A stretch of 64,000 nt of DNA from Candidatus Omnitrophota bacterium. Its GTDB lineage: Bacteria > Omnitrophota > Gorgyraeia > 2-01-FULL-45-10. The translations under genes and the position numbers were made by a program. Numbering within the stretch: position 1 is the first letter of the stretch; every line of letters starts with the position of its first letter. The DNA lies in assembly GCA_903843285.1 (NCBI GenBank), contig CAIMPC010000062.1, forward strand, positions 8,895-72,894, given 5' to 3'. The notes under the pieces were generated by a model, which was not told the DNA's origin, searched no databases, and saw only the letters and a list, made by a program, of their open reading frames with translations. This document shows positions 4,180 to 64,000 of the stretch, piece by piece.

Positions 4180-4271
4180 CAATTGACCAACCGTTCATAA
4201 TAAGCGCTCCCCCTTGCTTTTACCCGTATTCCGGGGGTTCACTTTATCATTGATTACATTTTTAATGCGCA

Positions 4272-4333
4272 GGGACACGTTTAATCTGAAAAAAGGGGAC
4301 ACGTTAAAGGTTGGATTTGCCAAACGGTACAAA
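4272..4333. repeat. copy A of a ~60-nt conserved repeat (GGGACAcGTTTAATCTgAAAAAAGGGGACACGTTaAAGGTTGGATTTGCCAAACGGTACAAaG). It overlaps the last 9 codons of larE.
   Basis: Near-identical copies lie at 59139-59193, 60431-60492 and 61729-61789, with a partial copy at 59718-59771. Confidence 0.7.
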
Positions 4334-10415: not shown

Positions 10416-10454
10416 ACCTCTTATTGGCTTGTAATATATATAAAACGGACTTCT

Positions 10455-10491
10455 AGATTCTTCGTTGGGCTAAAGCCATCCTCAGAATGAC
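10455..10491. repeat. REP/MITE-like palindromic unit (AGATTCTTCGTtGGGCTAAAGCCatCCTCAGAATGAC)
   Basis: Intergenic. Same unit family as at 24451-24539, 40773-40857, 59653-59692 and 60216-60393. Confidence 0.7.
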
Positions 10492-10517
10492 ATGCACTTC
10501 TATAGCTAAGCTATTAC

Positions 10518-11360
10518 CTATTTCTTCTTAAGTTTTTTCAGCTCTTCATCTTTTATCGTAAAGGTATGCTCCGGAGCTGGAAATTTACCGCTCTCGACAT
10601 CCGATATATATTTTTCAATCGCATCTTTCGCCAGGGATGATACGTTAAGATACTGCTTAACAAACTTAGGAACAAACTTATCGAACAAACCGAGCATATC
10701 GTAAGTAACGAGCACCTGACCGTCACAGTAAGGCCCCGCGCCGCAGCTTATAGTTGGTATCTTTAATCTTTCCGTTATTATCTTGGCCACCTTATCCGGA
10801 ACGCATTCGAGCACAATCGCGAAACAACCTGCGCTCTCGAGCCGCAGTGCCTGATCGAGGATCTTTAACGCAGACTCCCGGTCCTTACCCTGGACTTTGT
10901 ACCCGCCAAGTTTGGATACGGTCTGGGGGGTCAGCCCTAAATGTCCCAATACCGGAATTCCAGCATCTACTATCGCGCGCGTAGCTCCTATCACCTCATC
11001 GCCACCCTCGAGCTTCACGGCATCGCATCCTGCCTCTTTCAAAAAACGTCCGGCATTGCGCACAGCTTCTTCTTTAGAAACCTGGTATGACATGAACGGC
11101 ATATCGCCGATCAGAAAGGACGATCTGGTGCCGCGCCTGACGGCTTTCGAGTGATGTATCATCTCATCCATGGTCACAGGCACCGTAGAATCATATCCGA
11201 GCACAACCATCCCGAGTGAATCGCCCACCAAGATCACATCAATCCCGGCATCATCGACTATACGCGCCATCGGATAATCATACGCGGTCAGCATGGTGAT
11301 CTTCTTACCCTCGCGCTTTTTAGCGCGCAAATCACCGATCATAATCTTCTTTCGCTCCAT
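10518..11360 (-). CDS. panB: 3-methyl-2-oxobutanoate hydroxymethyltransferase
   Basis: 280 aa. Typical PanB motifs (MLTAYDYP...VGDSLGMV...LEGG). Confidence 0.85.
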   Translation of the reverse strand: MERKKIMIGDLRAKKREGKKITMLTAYDYPMARIVDDAGIDVILVGDSLGMVVLGYDSTVPVTMDEMIHHSKAVRRGTRSSFLIGDMPFMSYQVSKEEAVRNAGRFLKEAGCDAVKLEGGDEVIGATRAIVDAGIPVLGHLGLTPQTVSKLGGYKVQGKDRESALKILDQALRLESAGCFAIVLECVPDKVAKIITERLKIPTISCGAGPYCDGQVLVTYDMLGLFDKFVPKFVKQYLNVSSLAKDAIEKYISDVESGKFPAPEHTFTIKDEELKKLKKK

Positions 11361-11369
11361 ATATCTCCC

Positions 11370-12167
11370 TTACCTCTTCCTGTATGCGTCGAGAAACGAA
11401 TCGCAATAGATGTTTTTGTTCAATATGAGATCCGCCGTAATCATCGCATCCATTAATTCCTGGTCCAGCGGATCGAGGATCGCGGATGTCAGGCCGCAAG
11501 CCATCGCCATCGTCAGAAAAGTCCTGTTCAACAAGCCGCGATTGCCTTTTGTGCCCTGAGAAACGTTCGAAAGTCCGATCACGGTATTCGGCGCAGGATT
11601 ACAAAGCATCCTGAGTTCGCGTATCGTCTCGAGAACCTCTTTCCCCTGAGCCTGAGCCACATTGACCGGCATTGCTATGGGATCGAGATATAGGTCATCC
11701 GGACTTATTCCGAATTCCATGGCCTTGGCAATAATCTTTGCGGCAAGTTCCAGCCTATTATCCTTTGAATTAGGAACGCCGGACTTGTCCATAGCGACGC
11801 CGATCACCTGAGCATTATATTTCTTAGCGAGCCGAAAGACGACCGACATCTTATCGTCATCGGCGCTGGTCGAATTTATAACGACACGATTGACCGATAC
11901 CTTCAGGGCTTCCTCTATAACATCGGTCTTCGTCGAATCTATAGATAGCGCAACGGTAACAACCTTCTGGATGCTCTCGACCAGCCATTTCATATCATCC
12001 ACAGGTTTAGAGGAATATGGCCCTGCGCTTATATCGAGAATATTCGCTCCGGCTCTCACCTGCTCTTCGGCTAAATGCTGAATGACATCTGTCTCTCTGT
12101 TAGATATGGCCTTGCTGACATCCTTATACATACCGTTAATAAGTTCGCCTATTATTATCAATTTCAA
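11370..12167 (-). CDS. acsE: methyltetrahydrofolate:corrinoid/iron-sulfur protein methyltransferase (AcsE-like), paralog 1
   Basis: 265 aa pterin-binding domain protein, immediately downstream of acsD. Confidence 0.75.
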   Translation of the reverse strand: MKLIIIGELINGMYKDVSKAISNRETDVIQHLAEEQVRAGANILDISAGPYSSKPVDDMKWLVESIQKVVTVALSIDSTKTDVIEEALKVSVNRVVINSTSADDDKMSVVFRLAKKYNAQVIGVAMDKSGVPNSKDNRLELAAKIIAKAMEFGISPDDLYLDPIAMPVNVAQAQGKEVLETIRELRMLCNPAPNTVIGLSNVSQGTKGNRGLLNRTFLTMAMACGLTSAILDPLDQELMDAMITADLILNKNIYCDSFLDAYRKR

Positions 12168-12182
12168 TCCTCCCGGGAATAA

Positions 12183-13106
12183 CTACTTAGTCATGATCCA
12201 ATCTATATATCTCCTGACAGATCTGGCTGCATCCGGATGACGCATCACTATCAAATCGGCCCCGGCCTGGAGAAGAGATGTCGATGTAACTACTTCCCAA
12301 TTAATGCCCTGAACACTGCCAAACTCTTTAGCCTCTTTGGTCTTCCATGTTTCTGCGCCGACGAATACTATAAATGGCATCGCCAGCATCTTGTCACCCA
12401 CAAAAGCCGCAAGGCGGCTTCTCTCCATGATCGAATATACATACTCCATACCATATCCGAGCGACGTCGTGGTCGGATGCATCACTATACGCTTTGCATC
12501 GAACCCCATATCGCTTATAAGTATATTTACCTGCTTGGCGATATTGACATCTATCGGGGAGTCCGCTATTATCGAATGCCCGTCGGCAAGGCATGTGGCG
12601 GTCAACGTCTTATAATTATTCTGAGATGCGACGCCAAGCAGGCAATTCTCGCCCTTCAGCGCCTGGCTGACCTTAGGCATGATATCGTTATCACGCTCCT
12701 CATCTCCCGAACCCAACACTATCAAAGGAACGCCTGTCTTGCTGGCTATAGCCCTTAACACAACGAGAGCTTCATCGATCGGCCTGGAACCGTAATCGGG
12801 GTGCATGCTGGCAAGCCTGACGCATAGCGCCCGGGCCCCAAAATCTTCTACGCATGCCTTCGCCCATTTAACGGGATCTTTGACGACATTGCCATATGCA
12901 TTTATTATATGCTCCGACCAATCCTCCGGCGGACAATCCAATATCTCATATGCCACTACGGGAGGATTCGGCATCTCTCCTTCATCGAACAGAAATGGAA
13001 ATGTGCTCTGGCCGCCTATCTTAATAGACGGACATAGCGCCCCTTTCCCTATCTCCACCGTATTAATCGGGCCGCTATATTTTTCTTTAATAAGCTCTAC
13101 GGTCAT
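12183..13106 (-). CDS. acsD: corrinoid iron-sulfur protein small subunit (acetyl-CoA decarbonylase/synthase delta, AcsD/CdhD)
   Basis: 307 aa. CdhD family TIM-barrel. Sits between cooC and acsE. Confidence 0.8.
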   Translation of the reverse strand: MTVELIKEKYSGPINTVEIGKGALCPSIKIGGQSTFPFLFDEGEMPNPPVVAYEILDCPPEDWSEHIINAYGNVVKDPVKWAKACVEDFGARALCVRLASMHPDYGSRPIDEALVVLRAIASKTGVPLIVLGSGDEERDNDIMPKVSQALKGENCLLGVASQNNYKTLTATCLADGHSIIADSPIDVNIAKQVNILISDMGFDAKRIVMHPTTTSLGYGMEYVYSIMERSRLAAFVGDKMLAMPFIVFVGAETWKTKEAKEFGSVQGINWEVVTSTSLLQAGADLIVMRHPDAARSVRRYIDWIMTK

Positions 13107-24450: not shown

Positions 24451-24539
24451 GTCATCCTGAACCCGCCGGAGCTTTAGTAGCGGGTGAAGGATCTGGACGC
24501 GTAGATTCTTCGTCGGGCTAAAGCCCTCCTCAGAATGAC
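24451..24539. repeat. two adjacent REP/MITE-like units (GTCATCCTGA-hairpin-GAAGGATCT and AGATTCTTCG-hairpin-CTCAGAATGAC)
   Basis: Intergenic, between trmD and rplS. Same unit family as at the other REP-like sites. Confidence 0.7.
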
Positions 24540-24563
24540 ACACGCAATTCTATGACCAAACTA

Positions 24564-25244
24564 TCACTTCTTCCTTAACAGATCAGGTCTTCTCTGTCTA
24601 GTTCTCTTCACTGCCTCTTTCGCACGCCAATCATCTATCTTCTTATGGTCACCGGACAATAGAATGTCCGGAACCTTCATGCCCTTAAATTCTGCCGGAC
24701 GAGTATATTGCGGATACTCTAAAAAATCGTTCTCAAATGACTCCGATGCGGTCGAATCGCCGGAGCCCAGCACGCCCGGTATCAATCTCGTAACCGAATC
24801 TATAAGCACCATCGCGGGTAACTCACCGCATGTCAATATATAGTCGCCTACCGAGATCTCCTCATCGACCAGAGATCTTACCCTTTCGTCGACGCCTTCA
24901 TAATGGCCGCATATAAGAATGAGCTCTTTTTCTTTAGCAAATCTTTTTACTGTCTTCTGATCGAGCTTTATACCCTGAGGCGTAAGCAGTATAACTTTTG
25001 CGCCGCTTCCTTCAGAGGACTTAATATCCTTAAGCGCTAAATATACCGGCTCTACCTTCATCACCATTCCGGGCCCGCCGCCGAACGGTTTATCGTCAGC
25101 GCTGTGATGATTGTCGAAGGTCCAATCTCTTAAGTCATGTATTTTAACCTTTAGAAAGCCCTTAGCCTGGGCCCTCTTAAGGATCGACTCACCAAGGACG
25201 CTGTCGAACATATTGGGAAAAAGAGTCAGGATGTCTATATACAT
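24564..25244 (-). CDS. trmD: tRNA (guanine37-N1)-methyltransferase
   Basis: Typical TrmD, including the SPOUT knot region. Confidence 0.9.
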   Translation of the reverse strand: MYIDILTLFPNMFDSVLGESILKRAQAKGFLKVKIHDLRDWTFDNHHSADDKPFGGGPGMVMKVEPVYLALKDIKSSEGSGAKVILLTPQGIKLDQKTVKRFAKEKELILICGHYEGVDERVRSLVDEEISVGDYILTCGELPAMVLIDSVTRLIPGVLGSGDSTASESFENDFLEYPQYTRPAEFKGMKVPDILLSGDHKKIDDWRAKEAVKRTRQRRPDLLRKK

Positions 25245-40772: not shown

Positions 40773-40857
40773 GTCATCCTGAGCGAAGCCCGATAGGGCG
40801 AAGCGAAGGATCTCTCTTTTAGATTCTTCGTCGGGCTAAAGCCCTCCTCAGAATGAC
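40773..40857. repeat. two REP/MITE-like units (GTCATCCTGAGCGAAGCCCGATAGGGCGAAGCGAAGGATCT and AGATTCTTCGTCGGGCTAAAGCCCTCCTCAGAATGAC)
   Basis: Intergenic, between the M16 peptidase and rpe. Same unit family as at the other REP-like sites. Confidence 0.7.
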
Positions 40858-40886
40858 GCATGCACTTATATGACTGAACTATAGCC

Positions 40887-57845: not shown

Positions 57846-58898
57846 TTATTTAATAGACTTCTCTATTATCTCTTTTTCGATCTTGGCTAAGATCGTCGGA
57901 TTCGCCCTAAGATAGGTCCTGGCGTTCTCCTTACCCTGGCCGAGCTTCTCCTCGCCGTAAATCAGCCATGTCCCGCTCTTCTTCAGAACACCTGTAGCCT
58001 CACCCATATCTAACACACTGCCCGACTTAGAGATCCCCTCGTCGAACATGATGTCGAACTCCGCTTTTCTGAACGGCGGAGCTACTTTATTCTTAGCAAT
58101 AGATGCCCTGACTCTGTTACCCACAGCCTCTTCGCCTTTTTTAAGTGATGCTATTCTGCGCAGATCTATTCTGACCGATGAATAGAATTTGAGCGCCCTG
58201 CCTCCCGGCGTCGTTTCAGGATTTCCGAACATCACGCCTATCTTCTCGCGTATCTGGTTGATAAATATCACGCACGTCTTGGACTTCGAGATAGATCCCG
58301 ATAACTTCCTAAGAGCATGACTCATCAGACGCGCCTGTAATCCCATGTGCGACTGCCCCATCTCACCATCGATCTCAGCCTTCGGAACGAGTGCCGCTAC
58401 AGAGTCAATAACTACCACGTCTAATGCATTAGATTTTACCAGTGTCTCCGCTATATCCAACCCCTGTTCTCCGGTATCCGGTTGAGACATAAGCAGGTTG
58501 TCGAGATTAACTCCCAACATCTTCGCATAAGAAGGATCGAAGGCGTGCTCGGCGTCAATAAAAGCGGCCGTCCCGCCCATTCGCTGCGCATTAGCTATAA
58601 TGCTGAGGGTTAGCGTCGTCTTTCCGCTCGATTCGGGGCCAAATATCTCTATAACCCTCCCTCGCGGCACTCCGCCTACGCCGAGCGCTATATCGAGCGT
58701 CACCGATCCGGTAGGAATCGACGGCACATCCAACTTAAAGTCCTGGCCGAGCTTCATTATAGAACCCTTGCCGAATTGCTTTTCGATGTGCTCTAATGCC
58801 ATCTCGAGCGCTTTGGCTTTATTGGCCTGCACACTATCTTTAACCTCTTTAGGCTGCTCGTGAGCGTCCTCTTTTTCCTTCGATTTTGATTTTACCAT
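57846..58898 (-). CDS. recA: recombinase RecA
   Basis: Walker [10 protein letters not shown] and L1/L2 loops. 350 aa. Confidence 0.9.
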
Positions 58899-58959
58899 TT
58901 CACTCTCCTTGGATTATTACGCTGGTTACTTCTCGTATCAACATTACATATAGTGGGTT

Positions 58960-58988
58960 ATTATACAGGCATTACCTCCTTTCTGCAA
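58960..58988 (-). promoter_or_regulatory. sigma70-like recA promoter
   Basis: Minus strand reads TTGCAG - 17 nt - TATAAT, with a strong SD (AAGGAGAG) before the recA ATG. Confidence 0.4.
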
Positions 58989-59066
58989 GAAAATCGCACT
59001 AAAATAATGGGAATGGGAAGATACATCGTACCCCCTTCCATATGTGTTAATCGTCCTTATTTATTA

Positions 59067-59193
59067 CCCCCTACTATAAAGACGCTAAAAGGGGTGAAAT
59101 TGTTGCAAAGTATTTTAAAATAGTTTGATTGGGGACAGGTTTAATCTTAAAAAAGGGGACACCGTGAAGGTTGGTTTTGCCAAACGGTACAAG
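59067..59193. repeat. copy B, long form (~125 nt) of the island repeat. It is a direct repeat of 61665-61789.
   Basis: CCCCCTACTATAAAGACGCTAAAAGGGGTGAAATTGTTGCAAAGTATTTTAAAATAGTTTGATTGGGGACAGGTTTAATCTTAAAAAAGGGGACACCGTGAAGGTTGGTTTTGCCAAACGGTACAAG. About 95% identical to copy E. Confidence 0.75.
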
Positions 59194-59196
59194 GGC

Positions 59197-59334
59197 TCAA
59201 AGATGGTTGGGGGATATTCTAGTTACTTTACCGTTTTGCCACACAGAAAGAGGACGGCCTGTTTCCTTATGCCGCTCGACCACCTGTCGCACAGCCTTTT
59301 TCAGAGCCGCTTCTGCTTTATCTTGTAAGGACAT
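59197..59334 (-). CDS. 45-aa mini-ORF with a Phd/YefM-antitoxin-like N-terminal pattern
   Basis: MSLQDKAEAALKKAVRQVVERHKETGRPLSVWQNGKVTRISPNHL. The helix-then-GxPxxVxxNGKxVxRIxP pattern resembles the Phd/YefM N-domain. Its stop lies 3 nt from repeat B. Confidence 0.3.
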   Translation of the reverse strand: MSLQDKAEAALKKAVRQVVERHKETGRPLSVWQNGKVTRISPNHL

Positions 59335-59341
59335 TCTTTTT

Positions 59342-59566
59342 TCATATTTCCTTTACGCCTTTCTTAATCATCTCAAATAAATCACTATTTATAGCTTCGA
59401 CATGGCCATTTTTCTTTTTAGCGATCAGAGTAGGCCTTGCTTTAGAATTATCAAATAACATCCATGAATTAACCATCGGCATGTATAGATTGAAGAAATT
59501 ATAAATACCACGAACAAAACGCCTTCTCACGTCTTCCGATGGAACATTATGCCCGCCTTCGGCCAC
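59342..59566 (-). pseudogene. C-terminal remnant of a zeta-toxin/COG4185-like P-loop ATPase (N-terminus missing)
   Basis: 74 codons containing a GGHNVPSEDVRRRFVRG motif like the C-terminal region of zeta/AAA_33-type ATPases. An in-frame TGA lies 4 codons upstream of the first possible start. No Walker A is encoded upstream. Confidence 0.45.
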
Positions 59567-59652
59567 CCTATTGCCATGTCATAGCTTATACTCTGAACAT
59601 ATGCCCTCTACAAGTAAAATGCCTGCATGGGTTGTTTGATCTGACCCCGGAC

Positions 59653-59692
59653 GTCATTCTGAACGAAGCCCAAAAGGCGGAGTGAGGAATCT
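59653..59692. repeat. REP/MITE-like unit (GTCATTCTGAACGAAGCCCAAAAGGCGGAGTGAGGAATCT)
   Basis: Intergenic, between the zeta-like remnant and partial repeat C. Same unit family as at the other REP-like sites. Confidence 0.65.
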
Positions 59693-59717
59693 AGGAGCGG
59701 GATGCACTACTCACTGG

Positions 59718-59771
59718 GAAAGGTTGGATTTGCCAAACGGTATAAACACTGGGAGCATTCCAATAAATGAC
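59718..59771. repeat. partial copy C of the island repeat (GAAAGGTTGGATTTGCCAAACGGTATAAACACTGGGAGCATTCCAATAAATGAC)
   Basis: Shares the 3' tail (…GGGAGCrTTCCAATAAATGAC) with copy D. Followed by a duplicated GACCCCTTTTTTT. Confidence 0.6.
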
Positions 59772-59803
59772 TCTGACCCCTTTTTTTGTGACCCCTTTTT
59801 TTG

Positions 59804-60109
59804 CTAGACGAAAACTTTTTCTTCAACTTTTTTAACTCGACTCGCGAGGCCTTTTGTTTCATGGCTAATGTCCATCACAGCGCTTTTTACCGTATCAAGA
59901 TCCCGCTCGATTCTGTCTAAACGCTGACTATGTCCATCGAGAACGTGTTCAATTCTACCCAAGCGCTGATCATGCCCATCAAGCTTTCTTATTATGATTC
60001 CGTGGCCTTCGGCAATGGTCTGAACCTGCTTACTTATACCCTCTAACAATACTCTGGTTTCGCGGTCAGAGTCTGTGGTCTTATTTTTTGGCGCTTTATC
60101 ATTCTTCAT
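59804..60109 (-). CDS. small heptad-repeat coiled-coil protein, short paralog (101 aa), unknown family
   Basis: Starts with RBS GAGGAG then ATG. It is a paralog of 60537..61010, sharing an identical ~67-nt 5' leader (60110-60176 vs 61011-61077), an identical N-terminus (MKNDKAPKNKTTDS…) and an identical C-terminus (…ERDLDTVKSAVMDISHETKGLASRVKKVEEKVFV). It contains LDGHxQRL heptads. Confidence 0.6.
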   Translation of the reverse strand: MKNDKAPKNKTTDSDRETRVLLEGISKQVQTIAEGHGIIIRKLDGHDQRLGRIEHVLDGHSQRLDRIERDLDTVKSAVMDISHETKGLASRVKKVEEKVFV

Positions 60110-60215
60110 TTACTATTGTCTCCTCGTCGTAAAGTGAATATATCATACCGGGTTATTGAAGTAAACTTATTTTTCACGGGCTCCTGGATGGGGTTGTTTA
60201 ATCCGACCCCCGGAC

Positions 60216-60393
60216 GTCATTCTGAACGAAGGAGCCGAAGGGCGGAGTGAAGCCTGCCTGCCTACTATCGGAGCACCTGCAGGTAGGCAGGAATCTATGC
60301 GTTCAGATCCTTCGGCTCGCCACTTTCAGTGGCGGCCTCAGGATGACATACGCTTCGTCATTCTGAGGAGGGCTTTAGCCCGACGAAGAATCT
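60216..60393. repeat. composite array of three REP/MITE-like units, including one with a long GCCTGCCTGCCTAC…GCAGGTAGGCAGG hairpin insert
   Basis: Units at 60216-60296, 60303-60348 (inverted) and 60357-60393. Confidence 0.65.
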
Positions 60394-60430
60394 AAGGCAC
60401 TTGGATGACGAAGGGGCGCTTCTCTCGTCA

Positions 60431-60519
60431 GGGACAGGTTTAATCTTAAAAAAAGGGACACGTTGAAGGTTGGATTCTGCAAACGGTACAAGTGCTGGGA
60501 GCGTTCCAATAAATGACCC
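60431..60519. repeat. copy D of the island repeat (core 60431-60492 plus the tail shared with copy C)
   Basis: GGGACAGGTTTAATCTTAAAAAAAGGGACACGTTGAAGGTTGGATTCTGCAAACGGTACAAGTGCTGGGAGCGTTCCAATAAATGACCC. Confidence 0.7.
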
Positions 60520-60536
60520 TTTTTTGCTAGACGCTA

Positions 60537-61010
60537 CTAAACGAAAACTTTTTCTTCAACTTTTTTAACACGACTCGCGAGGCCTTTTGTTTCATGGCTA
60601 ATGTCCATCACAGCGCTTTTTACCGTATCAAGATCCCGCTCGATTCTGTCAAAACGCTGACTATGTCCATTAAGAATCTGACCATGCCCGCTCAAGCTCT
60701 GCGTATGCTCATCGAGGATCTGGCCATGTTTATTCAAGCTCTGCGTATGCTCATCGAGGATCTGGCCATGTTTATTCAGAATCTGAGTATGCTCATCGAG
60801 GATCTGGCCATGTTTATTCAGGATCTGAGTATGCTCATCGAGAACATTCTCAATCCTATCCAGGCGTTGACTATGCCCATCAAGCTTTCTTATTATGATT
60901 CCGTGGCCTTCGGCAACGGTCTGAACATGCTTACTTATACTCTCTAACAATACTCTGGTTTCGCGTTCAGAGTCTGTGGTCTTATTTTTTGGCGCTTTAT
61001 CATTCTTCAT
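60537..61010 (-). CDS. small heptad-repeat coiled-coil protein, expanded paralog (157 aa), unknown family
   Basis: Same leader, RBS and termini as 59804..60109. The middle is expanded by 14-aa / 42-bp in-frame tandem repeats (ILNKHGQILDEHTQ)n, giving about 12 consecutive LDxHxQx heptads. Confidence 0.6.
   Translation of the reverse strand: MKNDKAPKNKTTDSERETRVLLESISKHVQTVAEGHGIIIRKLDGHSQRLDRIENVLDEHTQILNKHGQILDEHTQILNKHGQILDEHTQSLNKHGQILDEHTQSLSGHGQILNGHSQRFDRIERDLDTVKSAVMDISHETKGLASRVKKVEEKVFV
60693..60850. repeat. 42-bp perfect or near-perfect tandem repeat, about 3.8 copies, in frame inside the 157-aa gene
   Basis: caagctctgcgtatgctcatcgaggatctggccatgtttatt occurs twice exactly, then two variant units. 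It is absent from the 101-aa paralog. Confidence 0.8.
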
Positions 61011-61248
61011 TTACTATTGTCTCCTCGTCGTAAAGTGAATATATCATACCGGGTTATTGAAGTAAACTTATTTTTCGCAGGCGCCTTTTTTCACGGGCTC
61101 CTGAACATTAATCCGAATGAAATCCTATCCTGCGCTTAGGCTGATCAGGGTGCGGAACCATTAGCTGACGAATCGCCTCGAAGATCATGCCGATATCTTC
61201 ACCATGCTTCTCTATTTTTATTTCAAGCTCGTTCAATTTATTAGATAA

Positions 61249-61626
61249 CTATTTATGGTTTACAATCATTGTTTTTAATCTTACGAAAGCTCGCATTATG
61301 GCAATATTTACCTGAATGGCTCGTTCGCTATTAAGCACGCTAGATAGCATAGCTACACCTTGCTCAGTAAATGCATACGGATTAGCACGTCGGGCTCCAT
61401 CCCAACTTGAAATCGCAATTTGCGATTTCAAGATTGCATGCTCTGCATCACTTAGCTGAAACATAAAATCATTCGGAAATCGCCTTATATTGCGCTTAAC
61501 CTGCTCATTTAACCGCATCACAGGAACCCCGTAAAGCCGCGCCAGATCCATAGAGAGCATAACCTTGTGCCCTCTAATTAAATAGATCTTCCTTTCAATA
61601 ATCTCTTCGGGTATTAAATTACTCAT
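61249..61626 (-). CDS. ORF6N domain protein, terminated early by an in-frame TAG (125 aa as encoded)
   Basis: [21 protein letters not shown]…FPNDFMFQL…[35 protein letters not shown] is a clear ORF6N/KilA-N-like domain. RBS AGAGAGGGAGA precedes the ATG at 61624-61626. The track ORF start at 61704 runs into repeat E and is rejected. Confidence 0.7.
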
Positions 61627-61664
61627 AATGCGTCTCCCTCTCTGTTTATATATACGTGCGTTGT

Positions 61665-61789
61665 CCCCACTATAAAGACGCGAAAAGGGGTGAAATTGTT
61701 GCAAAGTATTTTAAAATAGTTTGATTTGGGACAGGTTTAATCTTAAAAAAGGGGACACGTTGAAGGTTGGATTCGGCAAACGGTACAAG
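61665..61789. repeat. copy E, long form (~125 nt) of the island repeat. It is a direct repeat of 59067-59193.
   Basis: Begins 5 nt after the stop of the large upstream gene and ends 36 nt before the ORF6N start codon. Contains the AT-rich near-palindrome AAGTATTTTAAAATAGTT. Confidence 0.75.
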
Positions 61790-61795
61790 AGTGGG

Positions 61796-64000
61796 TTAGG
61801 CGCTGCGGGAGGCTTTGTCCATTGCGCTGAGCATCTTACTGATGGCTTCGGCGACGTCTCTGAATATCTTAAAGAATCCGAAGTAGCCGGATAGCTTCTT
61901 TATGCTATTATCATTTTCCTTATAGCCTATCGCGACGAACGCGCCCTTCATAATTATCGAGGCAAGCAGGTTAGTCAGGTTAATCTTTTCGACTGCGACT
62001 ACTGTATCGGCATTCATGCCTTTTCTATTGATAAGGGCATATGCCAGGGTGCCTTCACGGCCCTTCTCACGCGTATTCACAGCGTCCGCGCCTATCATAT
62101 TTATCTCATTGCCGGTATCGGTGTCTTCTAATAGGATGGCGATATTGCCAACCTTTACATTATTGGCTTCCATGGCAGACCGTATGGCATCCGATGGATT
62201 AACGCCCTCACCTACCAACACGACAGAGACTCCCGGCACATTCTTCTCGAGCGCGCTTTGCTGTTGGGCATCTCTGGCTATGAGAACCATCCTGGCTACA
62301 TTATTATTCTTCTCGGCATAGCCTAATGCTTCCCGGAATTCTCCACGAAGCTGGCCCTTATCCTTATCGAACACACTATTGCCATCGAACGCCAATATTA
62401 CAGTATCGCGGACTATGCTCGCCCTGTGTAATTTGCCAAGGGCTTCGAAGAGGCCCTCTAAACTGCCCGACTTATCCCTTAACACACCCTCTATCATGGC
62501 GTAAGCGCCGGTCACATTAACATCCTCTTTTGAATATACGCCATTGGCATATGTAAACGTATGCTGTTCCATCAGCTCACCGCTCTTAACAAACGCCGCG
62601 AGCGGCACAGCCGGCATCTTAAGGACCTTAAAACTGCCATCCGGCAATATGACCATCGATCCGGCATCGCCCAGTTTGGCGAAGTTTGCCCTGTCCGCGT
62701 CGAATTCCGCATCATTAGCAGGCATAACGGGATGGGAGTGGATCAACCAGCGCGTATTCGCATTAAACAGGACGGTAGACTTATAGTCATAGGAAGCGGC
62801 TGTAGCGTCAAAGACGATGGCGGCATTCCTGAAGGCATATGCGACCTTACCATCAGATCCGACAGAGAACGCGACCTCGTATAAGCCCTTGCCTATCGCC
62901 GTAGTCATATTGTTCCTTATCGTTTCATCGGGGAAGTCTGCGACATGGCTATCTATATACTCTTTAACCTTATCGCCCACTTTATCGCCTTTTTTGAGCG
63001 CTATATCGAAGCTTCTGCCGCCGATCTCTATCGTGTATGTCATATCCTCAGCGGCGATACCGTTACTTGCCAAACCCTGCATCCTGGTAATCTCGATGGC
63101 CGATTCTCTCGACACCGTATCGACACCACCAACCTTAGTGGCATTTGTAAGGCGTTCGGCTTTGGTCTGAGTCTTTTCGATAATCTTAGTTACGGTTTCG
63201 GGAGTTGCAGGCTCGCCGAGCAGGCTGGACTGAGCCATCATAATGCCGGGTCCGAGCGGCCCAACTCCGATCAATCCGTTTCTGAGCGCATCGATATTTT
63301 CCGGATGCGCTAATCTCTCGCTAATTGGCCCAAAGCTCGGAGCAAATTTGGCTGTGAATTCCGCGCGCTTCTCATCATTAAATTTACTCAAGGCGAGGCC
63401 AAGCGGGTTCTCGCCTGATTTATAACCGAAGAATTCCCTCTGGGTTATCTTATAAAGGTTGTCATGCGTATTAGTAGGTGTCACGGATTCCAATACTTCG
63501 TGGAGTATGTATTCCTGGATAAGCTTATTTCCATAAGGGGTGGGGGCGACCATCTTCGAGAGATATTCGATCACGTCCGCGGCGAGGGCTATTCCACCTC
63601 TCTTACCGAATCCTAAGAGATGCCCTGTGATCGGCTCGACTCTCGCAGTGAAGTATGAGATCATCGCGGCTCTTGTCTCGGGATTATTAAGCTTGCTCAA
63701 CATAGCCAGTGCGTCAGGATAAGAATCTGAGCTTATACCAGCCGGAGGACCTCTATTCATAGCCGTATCAAATAATTGCCTTATAGCCTGAGTCACCGCA
63801 TCCTCGACAACTTTATCTACACCTTCCAATTTCTGCACCAATCCGGAGGCGAATACCGCCTCGATAGACTCAGCGGCGTCTACCCTATCCTTCAGCCAGC
63901 CTTTAGCTATCTCTCCACCTCCGCCGGGTGATACGATAGGAGGAGCCTGCTTCTCAATCGCACTCACCCCCCAATCTACAGTAATTTCTCCTATATTATT
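61796..64000 (-). CDS. large hypothetical protein (at least 723 aa) with no recognisable family. The 5' end is unresolved and may continue past the window edge.
   Basis: Uninterrupted minus-strand frame from the window edge to TAA at 61796-61798. The candidate GTG at 63965-63967 has a poor SD. It contains a WLIHSHPVMPANDAEFD segment that loosely fits the JAMM/MPN H-x-H-x(n)-D signature. Ala/Gly-rich. Confidence 0.55.
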   Translation of the reverse strand, partial: NNIGEITVDWGVSAIEKQAPPIVSPGGGGEIAKGWLKDRVDAAESIEAVFASGLVQKLEGVDKVVEDAVTQAIRQLFDTAMNRGPPAGISSDSYPDALAMLSKLNNPETRAAMISYFTARVEPITGHLLGFGKRGGIALAADVIEYLSKMVAPTPYGNKLIQEYILHEVLESVTPTNTHDNLYKITQREFFGYKSGENPLGLALSKFNDEKRAEFTAKFAPSFGPISERLAHPENIDALRNGLIGVGPLGPGIMMAQSSLLGEPATPETVTKIIEKTQTKAERLTNATKVGGVDTVSRESAIEITRMQGLASNGIAAEDMTYTIEIGGRSFDIALKKGDKVGDKVKEYIDSHVADFPDETIRNNMTTAIGKGLYEVAFSVGSDGKVAYAFRNAAIVFDATAASYDYKSTVLFNANTRWLIHSHPVMPANDAEFDADRANFAKLGDAGSMVILPDGSFKVLKMPAVPLAAFVKSGELMEQHTFTYANGVYSKEDVNVTGAYAMIEGVLRDKSGSLEGLFEALGKLHRASIVRDTVILAFDGNSVFDKDKGQLRGEFREALGYAEKNNNVARMVLIARDAQQQSALEKNVPGVSVVLVGEGVNPSDAIRSAMEANNVKVGNIAILLEDTDTGNEINMIGADAVNTREKGREGTLAYALINRKGMNADTVVAVEKINLTNLLASIIMKGAFVAIGYKENDNSIKKLSGYFGFFKIFRDVAEAISKMLSAMDKASRSA

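Follow-up and report, generated by a model that had tools for sequence, protein, structure and literature searches.

A repeat-bounded island upstream of recA

We analysed a stretch of 64,000 nucleotides (nt) from contig CAIMPC010000062.1 of a Candidatus Omnitrophota bacterium (the window), in which recA is preceded by a 2.6-kb segment of small, co-oriented genes (the island) that is bracketed by two direct repeats of 125 nt (59069 to 59193 and 61665 to 61789). These repeats, which the initial annotation had described at about this length, are indeed present and are 94% identical. Each of them is bipartite, joining a sharply bounded, non-palindromic core of 62 nt to a promoter-like leader of about 60 nt, termed P2. 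The core is a discrete element that occurs at multiple sites and lies inverted around a gene like those of REP-associated tyrosine transposases (RAYTs) in three species, and the 125-nt repeat matches the left flank of that gene.

NCBI lists the closest RecA proteins as Candidatus Omnitrophota. The content of the window is that of housekeeping chromosome, including Wood-Ljungdahl, trp, and his genes, polA, rho, lepA, alaS, recX, and recA. The first 7 kb hold larE, mnmA, ApbE and NUDIX genes, and a tRNA-Met gene, and from about 7 kb to the window end there are housekeeping genes or open reading frames (ORFs) of the island. All sizeable genes across positions 1 to 64000 are on the minus strand, an extreme gene-strand bias for a stretch of this length. 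The GC skew of the plus strand is negative throughout the window (-0.09 to -0.24), indicating that the minus strand is the leading-strand sequence, and all genes and all five cores of the window lie on it. In minus-strand order, a gene for a protein of 4036 amino acids (aa) (stop at 61796) is followed by the 2.6-kb segment, recA (58898 to 57846), recX, and alaS. A sigma-70-like promoter of recA (TTGCAG-N17-TATAAT with TG) was predicted from the sequence at 58960 to 58988 on the minus strand.

All genes of the island are likewise on the minus strand. The first is an ORF6N gene (Pfam ORF6N, E 2.9e-33; PADLOC defence candidate PDC-S05, E 7e-52), whose translation runs for 125 codons (61249 to 61626) up to an in-frame TAG at codon 126 and continues in the same frame for another 46 codons (61108 to 61248). 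The gene had already been described as broken by a stop, and the same 125-aa product is encoded on at least 18 contigs, indicating fixation of the stop codon in this population. The TAG (61249 to 61251) is found in every assembly that has the gene, which may be a fixed pseudogene or may contain a read-through or recoded stop.

The ORF6N gene is followed by two genes for coiled-coil proteins, paralogue 2 of 157 aa (60537 to 61010) and paralogue 1 of 101 aa (59804 to 60109). Their heptad-repeat products are paralogous (E 2e-53) and each gene has its own promoter-like leader, as had been proposed. The two are members of a tandem duplication with a spacing of 901/733 nt, the unit of which comprises leader, gene, 3' flank, and core, and they differ by a 56-residue block of 21/42-nt tandem repeats. 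These repeats (60652 to 60861), which are internal to paralogue 2, encode a heptad block rich in histidine and glutamine. Closer to recA lies a 74-aa remnant of a zeta-toxin-like P-loop kinase (59342 to 59566); its earlier identification was correct, and the ORF corresponds to the C-terminal third of Zeta_toxin/AAA_33 proteins of about 195 aa. The last ORF, of 45 aa (59197 to 59334), is annotated in several assemblies; its earlier label, Phd-like, was not confirmed, as no match to it was obtained in Pfam, NCBIfam, PHROGs, or PADLOC.

The 62-nt core and its insertion sites

In an alignment of 16 core copies from three species, the blocks TGTACCGTTTG, CCTT, GTGTCCC, ATTAAA, and TGTCCC are invariant, and the core can be written as (C/T)TTGTACCGTTTG-N3-AATCCAACCTT-N5-GTGTCCCCTTTT-N4-ATTAAA-N2-TGTCCC. 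A degenerate 23-nt core pattern has 5 matches in the window, with 0.01 expected by chance, and all five cores are on the minus strand as singlets. Three full copies in the island are 89 to 100% identical. The copy at 61728 to 61789 (nhmmer E 5e-22) begins 6 nt past the stop codon of the 4036-aa gene, which the initial annotation knew as a gene of at least 723 aa trailed directly by the repeat. The copies at 60431 to 60492, downstream of paralogue 2, and at 59132 to 59193, proximal to recA, were identified by repeat alignment and core search. A fourth copy (59719 to 59748, E 2e-5) retains the 5' 30 nt, the remainder having been lost by internal deletion, and was carried along by the duplication of the paralogue unit. 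The shorter internal copies annotated earlier at 59718 to 59771 and 60431 to 60519 are present; they consist of core sequence joined to the 3' flank that was duplicated with the paralogues. The fifth core (4272 to 4333) is 55 kb from the island, fused to the 3' end of larE and upstream of the tRNA-Met gene.

At larE the core can be recognized as an insertion. LarE homologues end 2 to 5 residues past a conserved GSMHE (...GSMHEAV), and the LarE of the window has an extra YFVPFGKSNL read from the core, with a TAA inside the core as its stop codon (last 10 codons and stop at 4304 to 4333, minus strand). No core follows larE in a relative. The core-encoded tail together with the relative without a core at this site indicates that the core was inserted at larE.

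Outside the window, at least 10 core copies were found in other metagenome contigs, 8 of them from sample 3300009502, with sharp ends and at unrelated loci. In total at least 12 copies were seen. The metagenome scan was incomplete, as of the window's own copies it returned only that in a contig identical to the window (L007, from sample 3300009502). A scan of a genome collection in which the source species is not represented gave one chance match (Maribacter). The initial annotation had held that a repeat ubiquitous in intergenic regions and unrelated to variable gene content would speak against its reading; copies do lie outside the island beside housekeeping genes, which goes part of the way towards that refutation, but the family is tied to a RAYT gene elsewhere in the genome and not to ordinary terminator duplication. 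Cores begin no more than 10 nt past the preceding stop codon at five sites, and their orientation agrees with that of transcription in about 10 of 14 cases. No consistent target motif was found 5' of the core, where TAC or CTC is present in some copies. On one contig (L017, 5276 to 6947), two direct cores bracket an AbiEi/AbiEii toxin-antitoxin (TA) module between a GHL10 gene and yggS-proC, indicating that accessory modules bounded by direct cores are not unique to recA.

The predicted structure of the repeat is unlike that of an integron site. Single-stranded DNA folds of the cores were no better than those of shuffled sequences (z of +0.5 to +1.3 in five of six copies and -1.25 in one), z was +0.17 to +1.28 (one copy at -1.25) when cores and 125-nt units were folded as DNA on either strand, and RNAalifold found zero consensus pairs in the 16 aligned copies. 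This indicates that the repeat is not an attC-like site (with R''-L''/L'-R' pairing, for which a folding check had been suggested), a classical REP hairpin, or an intrinsic terminator. The T-run of the core has no preceding stem, and a terminator scan was empty in the cores. A review of all window genes revealed no IntI tyrosine recombinase with attI and Pc beside the array, and the absence of integrase and transposase genes from the 64 kb, as stated earlier, was upheld by the called genes, family matches, and core search. Neither does the island show one unrelated, mostly promoterless ORF per attC, since two units are paralogous and one interval holds two ORF remnants. The integron-type cassette array proposed initially was thus not supported, as there is no IntI and no fold, one pair of "cassettes" arose by tandem duplication and each member has a promoter-like leader, and P2 is native recA upstream sequence in related genomes.

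The other original suggestion, a miniature inverted-repeat transposable element (MITE), fits in that the core is a discrete, sharp-ended element at unrelated sites, but it has neither terminal inverted repeats nor target-site duplications; the core termini, TTGTACCG... and ...CTGTCCC, do not form an inverted repeat, and no target duplication is seen beside any of the 16 copies. Further candidates were rejected. Rfam searches (at the gathering threshold on the whole window and in E-value mode on 58800 to 62000) returned only the tRNA and a chance miRNA match. For a phage att site, viral contigs gave only a chance match of the core pattern in Sel1-repeat coding sequence and no relatives of the paralogues, and for the template and variable repeats of a diversity-generating retroelement, the positions at which the two 125-nt copies differ show no specificity for adenine.

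The RAYT gene and the P2 leader

On contig L011, inverted cores at 11945 to 12006 (plus strand) and 12771 to 12832 (minus strand) flank an ORF of 177 aa. Its product is a Y1/HUH transposase (Pfam Y1_Tnp, E 2.8e-16) with a recognizable HUH motif (HIH) and tyrosine motif (YIETNP). The best NCBIfam match is the full-length model NF047646 (REP-associated tyrosine transposase; E 1.8e-20, 73.3 bits), and the IS200 transposase model scored only 21.6 bits against a cut-off of 55. A PDB sequence search with the protein gave no match. The identical protein is encoded on 13 contigs with the same neighbours in all 13, and no second copy was found in any contig DNA examined. RAYTs are single-copy genes, and the repeats whose dispersal is attributed to them reside in their extragenic flanks (PMC5581495). 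One fixed context on 13 contigs agrees with the single-copy behaviour described for RAYTs in that paper. The gene appears to be part of the window's genome, as RAYT and island occur together in six samples (ERZ1426631, 3300009502, ERZ18629311, ERZ1426681, ERZ18626762, and ERZ27313089). Tetranucleotide composition was uninformative for linking the contigs, with a different species scoring as high as the window's own halves.

RAYT orthologues with 70% identity are present in two other Omnitrophota species (L042 and L043), and there, too, homologous 62-nt cores lie inverted on either side of the gene. The left flank in L042 runs from the core through the A/T palindrome and TTGCAAT...CATCTTATATAG to the ribosome-binding site (RBS) and the RAYT start codon. 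The core directly abuts P2, followed by RBS and ATG, which is the layout of the window's 125-nt repeat. In L011 the leader abuts the RAYT start codon, and about 200 nt of other short repeats stand between core and leader. Since the 125-nt repeat consists of core and leader as at the RAYT left flank, the two repeats beside recA and ORF6N can be read as solo RAYT left flanks. The reading frame of the RAYT enters the right-hand core in each of the three species (L011, 12771 to 12806; L042 and L043, about 10498 to 10543), and the last approximately 11 residues (...GTALISEKGTL) are repeat-encoded.

P2 has the consensus layout TATTTTAAAATA...TGCAAC-N17-CGTCTT...TATAG-GGGAGG, in which TATTTTAAAATA is an A/T palindrome. 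In the window, one P2 lies directly upstream of ORF6N (61665 to 61727, minus strand; P2 hidden Markov model [HMM], E 1.2e-16) and another upstream of recA (59067 to 59131, minus strand), the latter with a homologue upstream of recA in three relatives that lack the core. The motif TGCAAC-N17-CGTC occurs 3 times in the window versus 0.13 expected, two of the occurrences being the repeats themselves. Run on 44 loci (about 427 kb, redundant), the P2 HMM matched only upstream of recA in the window and the three relatives, upstream of ORF6N and RAYT genes, and in L006, where a third solo copy of core plus P2 precedes an unrelated gene of 520 aa. A further P2 stands in a separate locus of one of these three relatives (L045), before a homologue (E 1e-16) of the coiled-coil genes of the island. 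Across the 44 loci together with L045 and L046, P2 was seen before recA in four Omnitrophota genomes and also before RAYT genes, ORF6N, and a gene for a coiled-coil protein; apart from the copy in L006, it was seen nowhere else. Copies outside the window are at L019 7835 to 7887, L021 7829 to 7879, L023 7779 to 7837, L045 5566 to 5622, L011 12206 to 12262, and L042 9902 to 9958.

About 7 nt past the CGTCTT/CATCCT block of P2, a short leader with an RBS precedes the RAYT and ORF6N genes. The placement of P2 fits a promoter, and its position suggests promoter activity. A sigma-54 promoter was rejected because the GG-GC spacing is 8 and not 10, as was a sigma-70 promoter, for which TTGCAA and TATAGT are about 24 nt apart. 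We take TGCAAC-N17-CGTC to resemble the promoters of extracytoplasmic function (ECF) sigma factors. Genes preceded by P2 could form a small regulon with recA as a member, perhaps via an ECF-like promoter or a damage response. The 63 nt that follow the core at larE (4209 to 4271, upstream of the tRNA-Met gene) are about 61% identical, ungapped, to the P2 half of the repeat. They gave no match when scored with the P2 model and may be a degenerate P2 or a chance resemblance.

Comparison with relatives identifies which part of the repeat is older at recA. In three genomes with RecA 89 to 91% identical to that of the window, a giant gene, cinA, ligT, P2, a sigma-70-like promoter (TTTACA-N17-TGTATAAT), and recA follow one another, and the core is absent. 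P2 without a core indicates that, of the two parts, only P2 is ancestral in the recA upstream region. No homologue of cinA, ligT, or the relatives' giant protein exists in the window, so that synteny breaks at the recA-proximal core. With cinA-ligT in the place of the island in relatives, the island is a lineage-specific replacement region, in agreement with its initial description as an accessory island. The last 733 residues of the 4036-aa protein upstream of the island (61796 to 64000 and beyond) have no significant Pfam match and do not resemble the giant HATPase_c-containing proteins at the equivalent position in relatives.

The island is at the same place in all 18 to 19 contigs with island proteins, and its tandem unit varies between samples. 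The two coiled-coil genes encode 157 and 101 aa, 157 and 157 aa, or 101 and 101 aa, or a single 101-aa gene is present in an island that is exactly 901 nt shorter. Among these contigs no empty island site or alternative cargo was found; only the tandem unit differs. The variation fits unequal recombination or gene conversion between units, although it may also reflect collapse of short-read assemblies. The occurrence of the 101-aa and 157-aa versions in either position, depending on the sample, suggests variation in repeat number or gene conversion, if not assembly artefacts.

Origin of the repeats and relation to known systems

We consider it likely that the repeats are a RAYT-associated dispersed family of this Omnitrophota lineage, with the 125-nt units as solo left flanks. 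The RAYT would act in trans on single-stranded DNA and copy cores elsewhere, new cores landing mostly just past stop codons on leading-strand sequence. All five window cores lie on leading-strand sequence, the template for lagging-strand synthesis, in agreement with what is reported for IS200/IS605-type enzymes (Ton-Hoang 2010, as cited in PMC5581495). Upstream of recA, P2 is ancestral, and four co-oriented cores subdivide a 2.6-kb lineage-specific segment in place of cinA-ligT, the cargo of which is defence- or TA-type genes, mostly broken, plus a tandem duplication. The direct repeats may supply homology at which DNA is duplicated, deleted, or perhaps gained by Campbell-type recombination, and P2 may serve as a portable promoter for any gene downstream, here ORF6N.

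Several points weigh against this explanation. The core is non-palindromic with no predicted hairpin, and a hairpin defines classical REPs and the ends of IS200/IS605 elements. The RAYT gene lies outside the window and was assigned to its genome by co-occurrence only, and its score of 73.3 bits is just under the NCBIfam cut-off of 80. Cores were counted in the window (5 in 64 kb, 4 of them in the island) and in other contigs (at least 10) only. The promoter role of P2 is proposed from its position, transposition is predicted from sequence patterns, and no empty site was found for the island.

The nearest working analogue is the REP/RAYT system (Escherichia coli TnpA_REP with REP/BIME and the REPINs of Pseudomonas), to which the repeats conform in protein, flanking copies, and single-copy gene but not in palindromes or REPINs. 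In both, a single-copy HUH/Y1 transposase-like gene has a fixed chromosomal context and inverted copies of a short repeat as its flanks; the repeat is scattered extragenically, often at gene 3' ends, amid other short repeats in BIME-like mosaics; and the structure of the flanks is conserved across species, suggesting vertical inheritance. However, the repeat described here is 62 nt long and non-palindromic and lacks both a hairpin and a GTAG or CGTC head, its window copies are singlets in one orientation and not REPIN doublets, and the transposase gene's promoter-like leader is attached to some copies. Its abundance also appears modest, with at least 12 copies seen. The host differs as well, being a member of the Omnitrophota, whereas the RAYT/REP examples in PMC5581495, with palindromic repeats, are from the genera Pseudomonas, Escherichia, and Haemophilus (other phyla were not searched).

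The repeat system is neither an integron nor a MITE, nor is it an IS200/IS605 element. IS200/IS605 elements and their miniature derivatives (PATEs) share with it a Y1 HUH enzyme, copies without target-site duplications, and an orientation that would suit activity on the lagging-strand template, as judged from GC skew and the literature cited in PMC5581495. The low IS200 score, the single-copy gene, and the lack of a tnpB set it apart, and its ends are inverted copies of one sequence and not distinct left-end and right-end hairpins. Integron arrays resemble the island in their small co-oriented ORFs, each followed by a conserved element of 60 to 130 nt, and in their accessory TA and defence content. 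The island has no IntI, attI, or Pc and no attC-like bulged hairpin, its ORFs have their own promoters, two being tandem duplicates, and the element also follows housekeeping genes. The Correia elements of Neisseria are short dispersed repeats able to bring a promoter before neighbouring genes, as proposed here for P2. They end in inverted repeats and duplicate a TA target, and the promoter-like part of the present repeat is the leader of the transposase gene.

Other explanations of the repeats are less probable. Core and P2 could be immobile cis-elements of the host, the core a 3' untranslated region or protein-binding element and P2 a regulated promoter, that were spread by segmental duplication and are linked to RAYT through incidental co-regulation. 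The conservation of P2 upstream of recA across species and its presence before several unrelated genes would agree with this, as would the general orientation of cores along transcription and the partial core at 59719, which is clearly a product of the segmental duplication that copied the paralogue unit. We regard it as unlikely nonetheless, because inverted cores surround RAYT orthologues in three species, core boundaries are sharp with unrelated flanks, a core overwrote the larE stop codon at a site where a relative has none, and there is neither a terminator-like hairpin nor an Rfam family.

It is also rather improbable that the two 125-nt repeats are attL and attR, left when circular DNA with one core plus P2 recombined in Campbell fashion at the recA-proximal copy and brought in ORF6N, a coiled-coil gene, and the TA remnant. 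No integrase, replication gene, or excision gene is present in the segment, neither core nor cargo was found in viral contigs, and the segment is at one location only in 18 to 19 contigs, although it does lie between direct repeats and is absent from relatives, ORF6N is an anti-repressor-like domain associated with phage or defence, and the third copy of core plus P2 (L006) shows that such donors exist. This scenario is compatible with a RAYT-dispersed family as an account of its origin and is not really an alternative to it.

Equally doubtful is the idea that the core is a recognition site at which a HUH enzyme of the RAYT type captures or excises small defence or TA modules at gene 3' ends, as a single-stranded DNA counterpart of integrons, with the shared P2 linking RAYT, captured genes, and recA to one regulator, for example of a DNA-damage or ECF-sigma response. 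The modules bracketed by direct cores, in this island and at the AbiE genes of L017, fit the topology of such capture. Least probable of all is a cassette array in which the core is the recombination site for serial capture of ORF-plus-core cassettes by an unseen tyrosine recombinase or by the RAYT: the periodic layout of co-oriented copies, the second case in L017, the defence- and TA-type cargo, and the closeness of cores to stop codons at five sites are set against the lack of an integrase in the 64 kb and of an attC-like fold or R''/R' pair, two "cassettes" that are tandem duplicates with promoter-like leaders of their own, a zeta remnant and a 45-aa ORF in one interval, a P2 in the proximal repeat that is native to the recA upstream region, population variants that alter the tandem unit only and never the cargo, and cores that are inverted and not direct around the RAYT gene.

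The prevailing view of RAYT/REP systems is that they are ancient partners of bacterial genomes and are inherited vertically. The non-trivial points about the present family are a hairpin-less RAYT repeat with promoter-bearing solo flanks and a P2 that is common to recA, RAYT, and a few accessory genes. A long repeat without a hairpin, sometimes with the RAYT leader, in uncultured Omnitrophota would broaden what RAYT enzymes recognise, and the sharing of P2 by recA and RAYT in several species would, if real, tie a domesticated transposase to the recombination and DNA-damage machinery. For genome scans, a periodicity of ORF and then conserved element beside a housekeeping gene can reflect RAYT-type repeats and tandem duplication and not necessarily an integron.

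The cores are accompanied by other short repeats. A mosaic of these (GTCATTCTGA...GAATCT type and a CCTGCCTACCTGCAGG palindrome) occupies 60190 to 60430 on the minus strand, and its repeat families recur at 10454, 24502, and 40820 and beside the RAYT gene. Besides the cores, at least one further short intergenic family (TAGATTCTTCGTCGGGCTAAAGCCCTCCTCAGAATGAC and relatives) was seen at 10454 to 10516, 24502 to 24564, 40820 to 40882, 59622 to 59700, and 60190 to 60413. Repeats of the TAGATTCTTCGTCGGGCTAAAGCCCTCCTCAGAATGAC type, some of them hairpin-forming, are mixed with cores in a BIME-like manner, and copies are also present beside the RAYT gene in L011 (12020 to 12140) and in L017.

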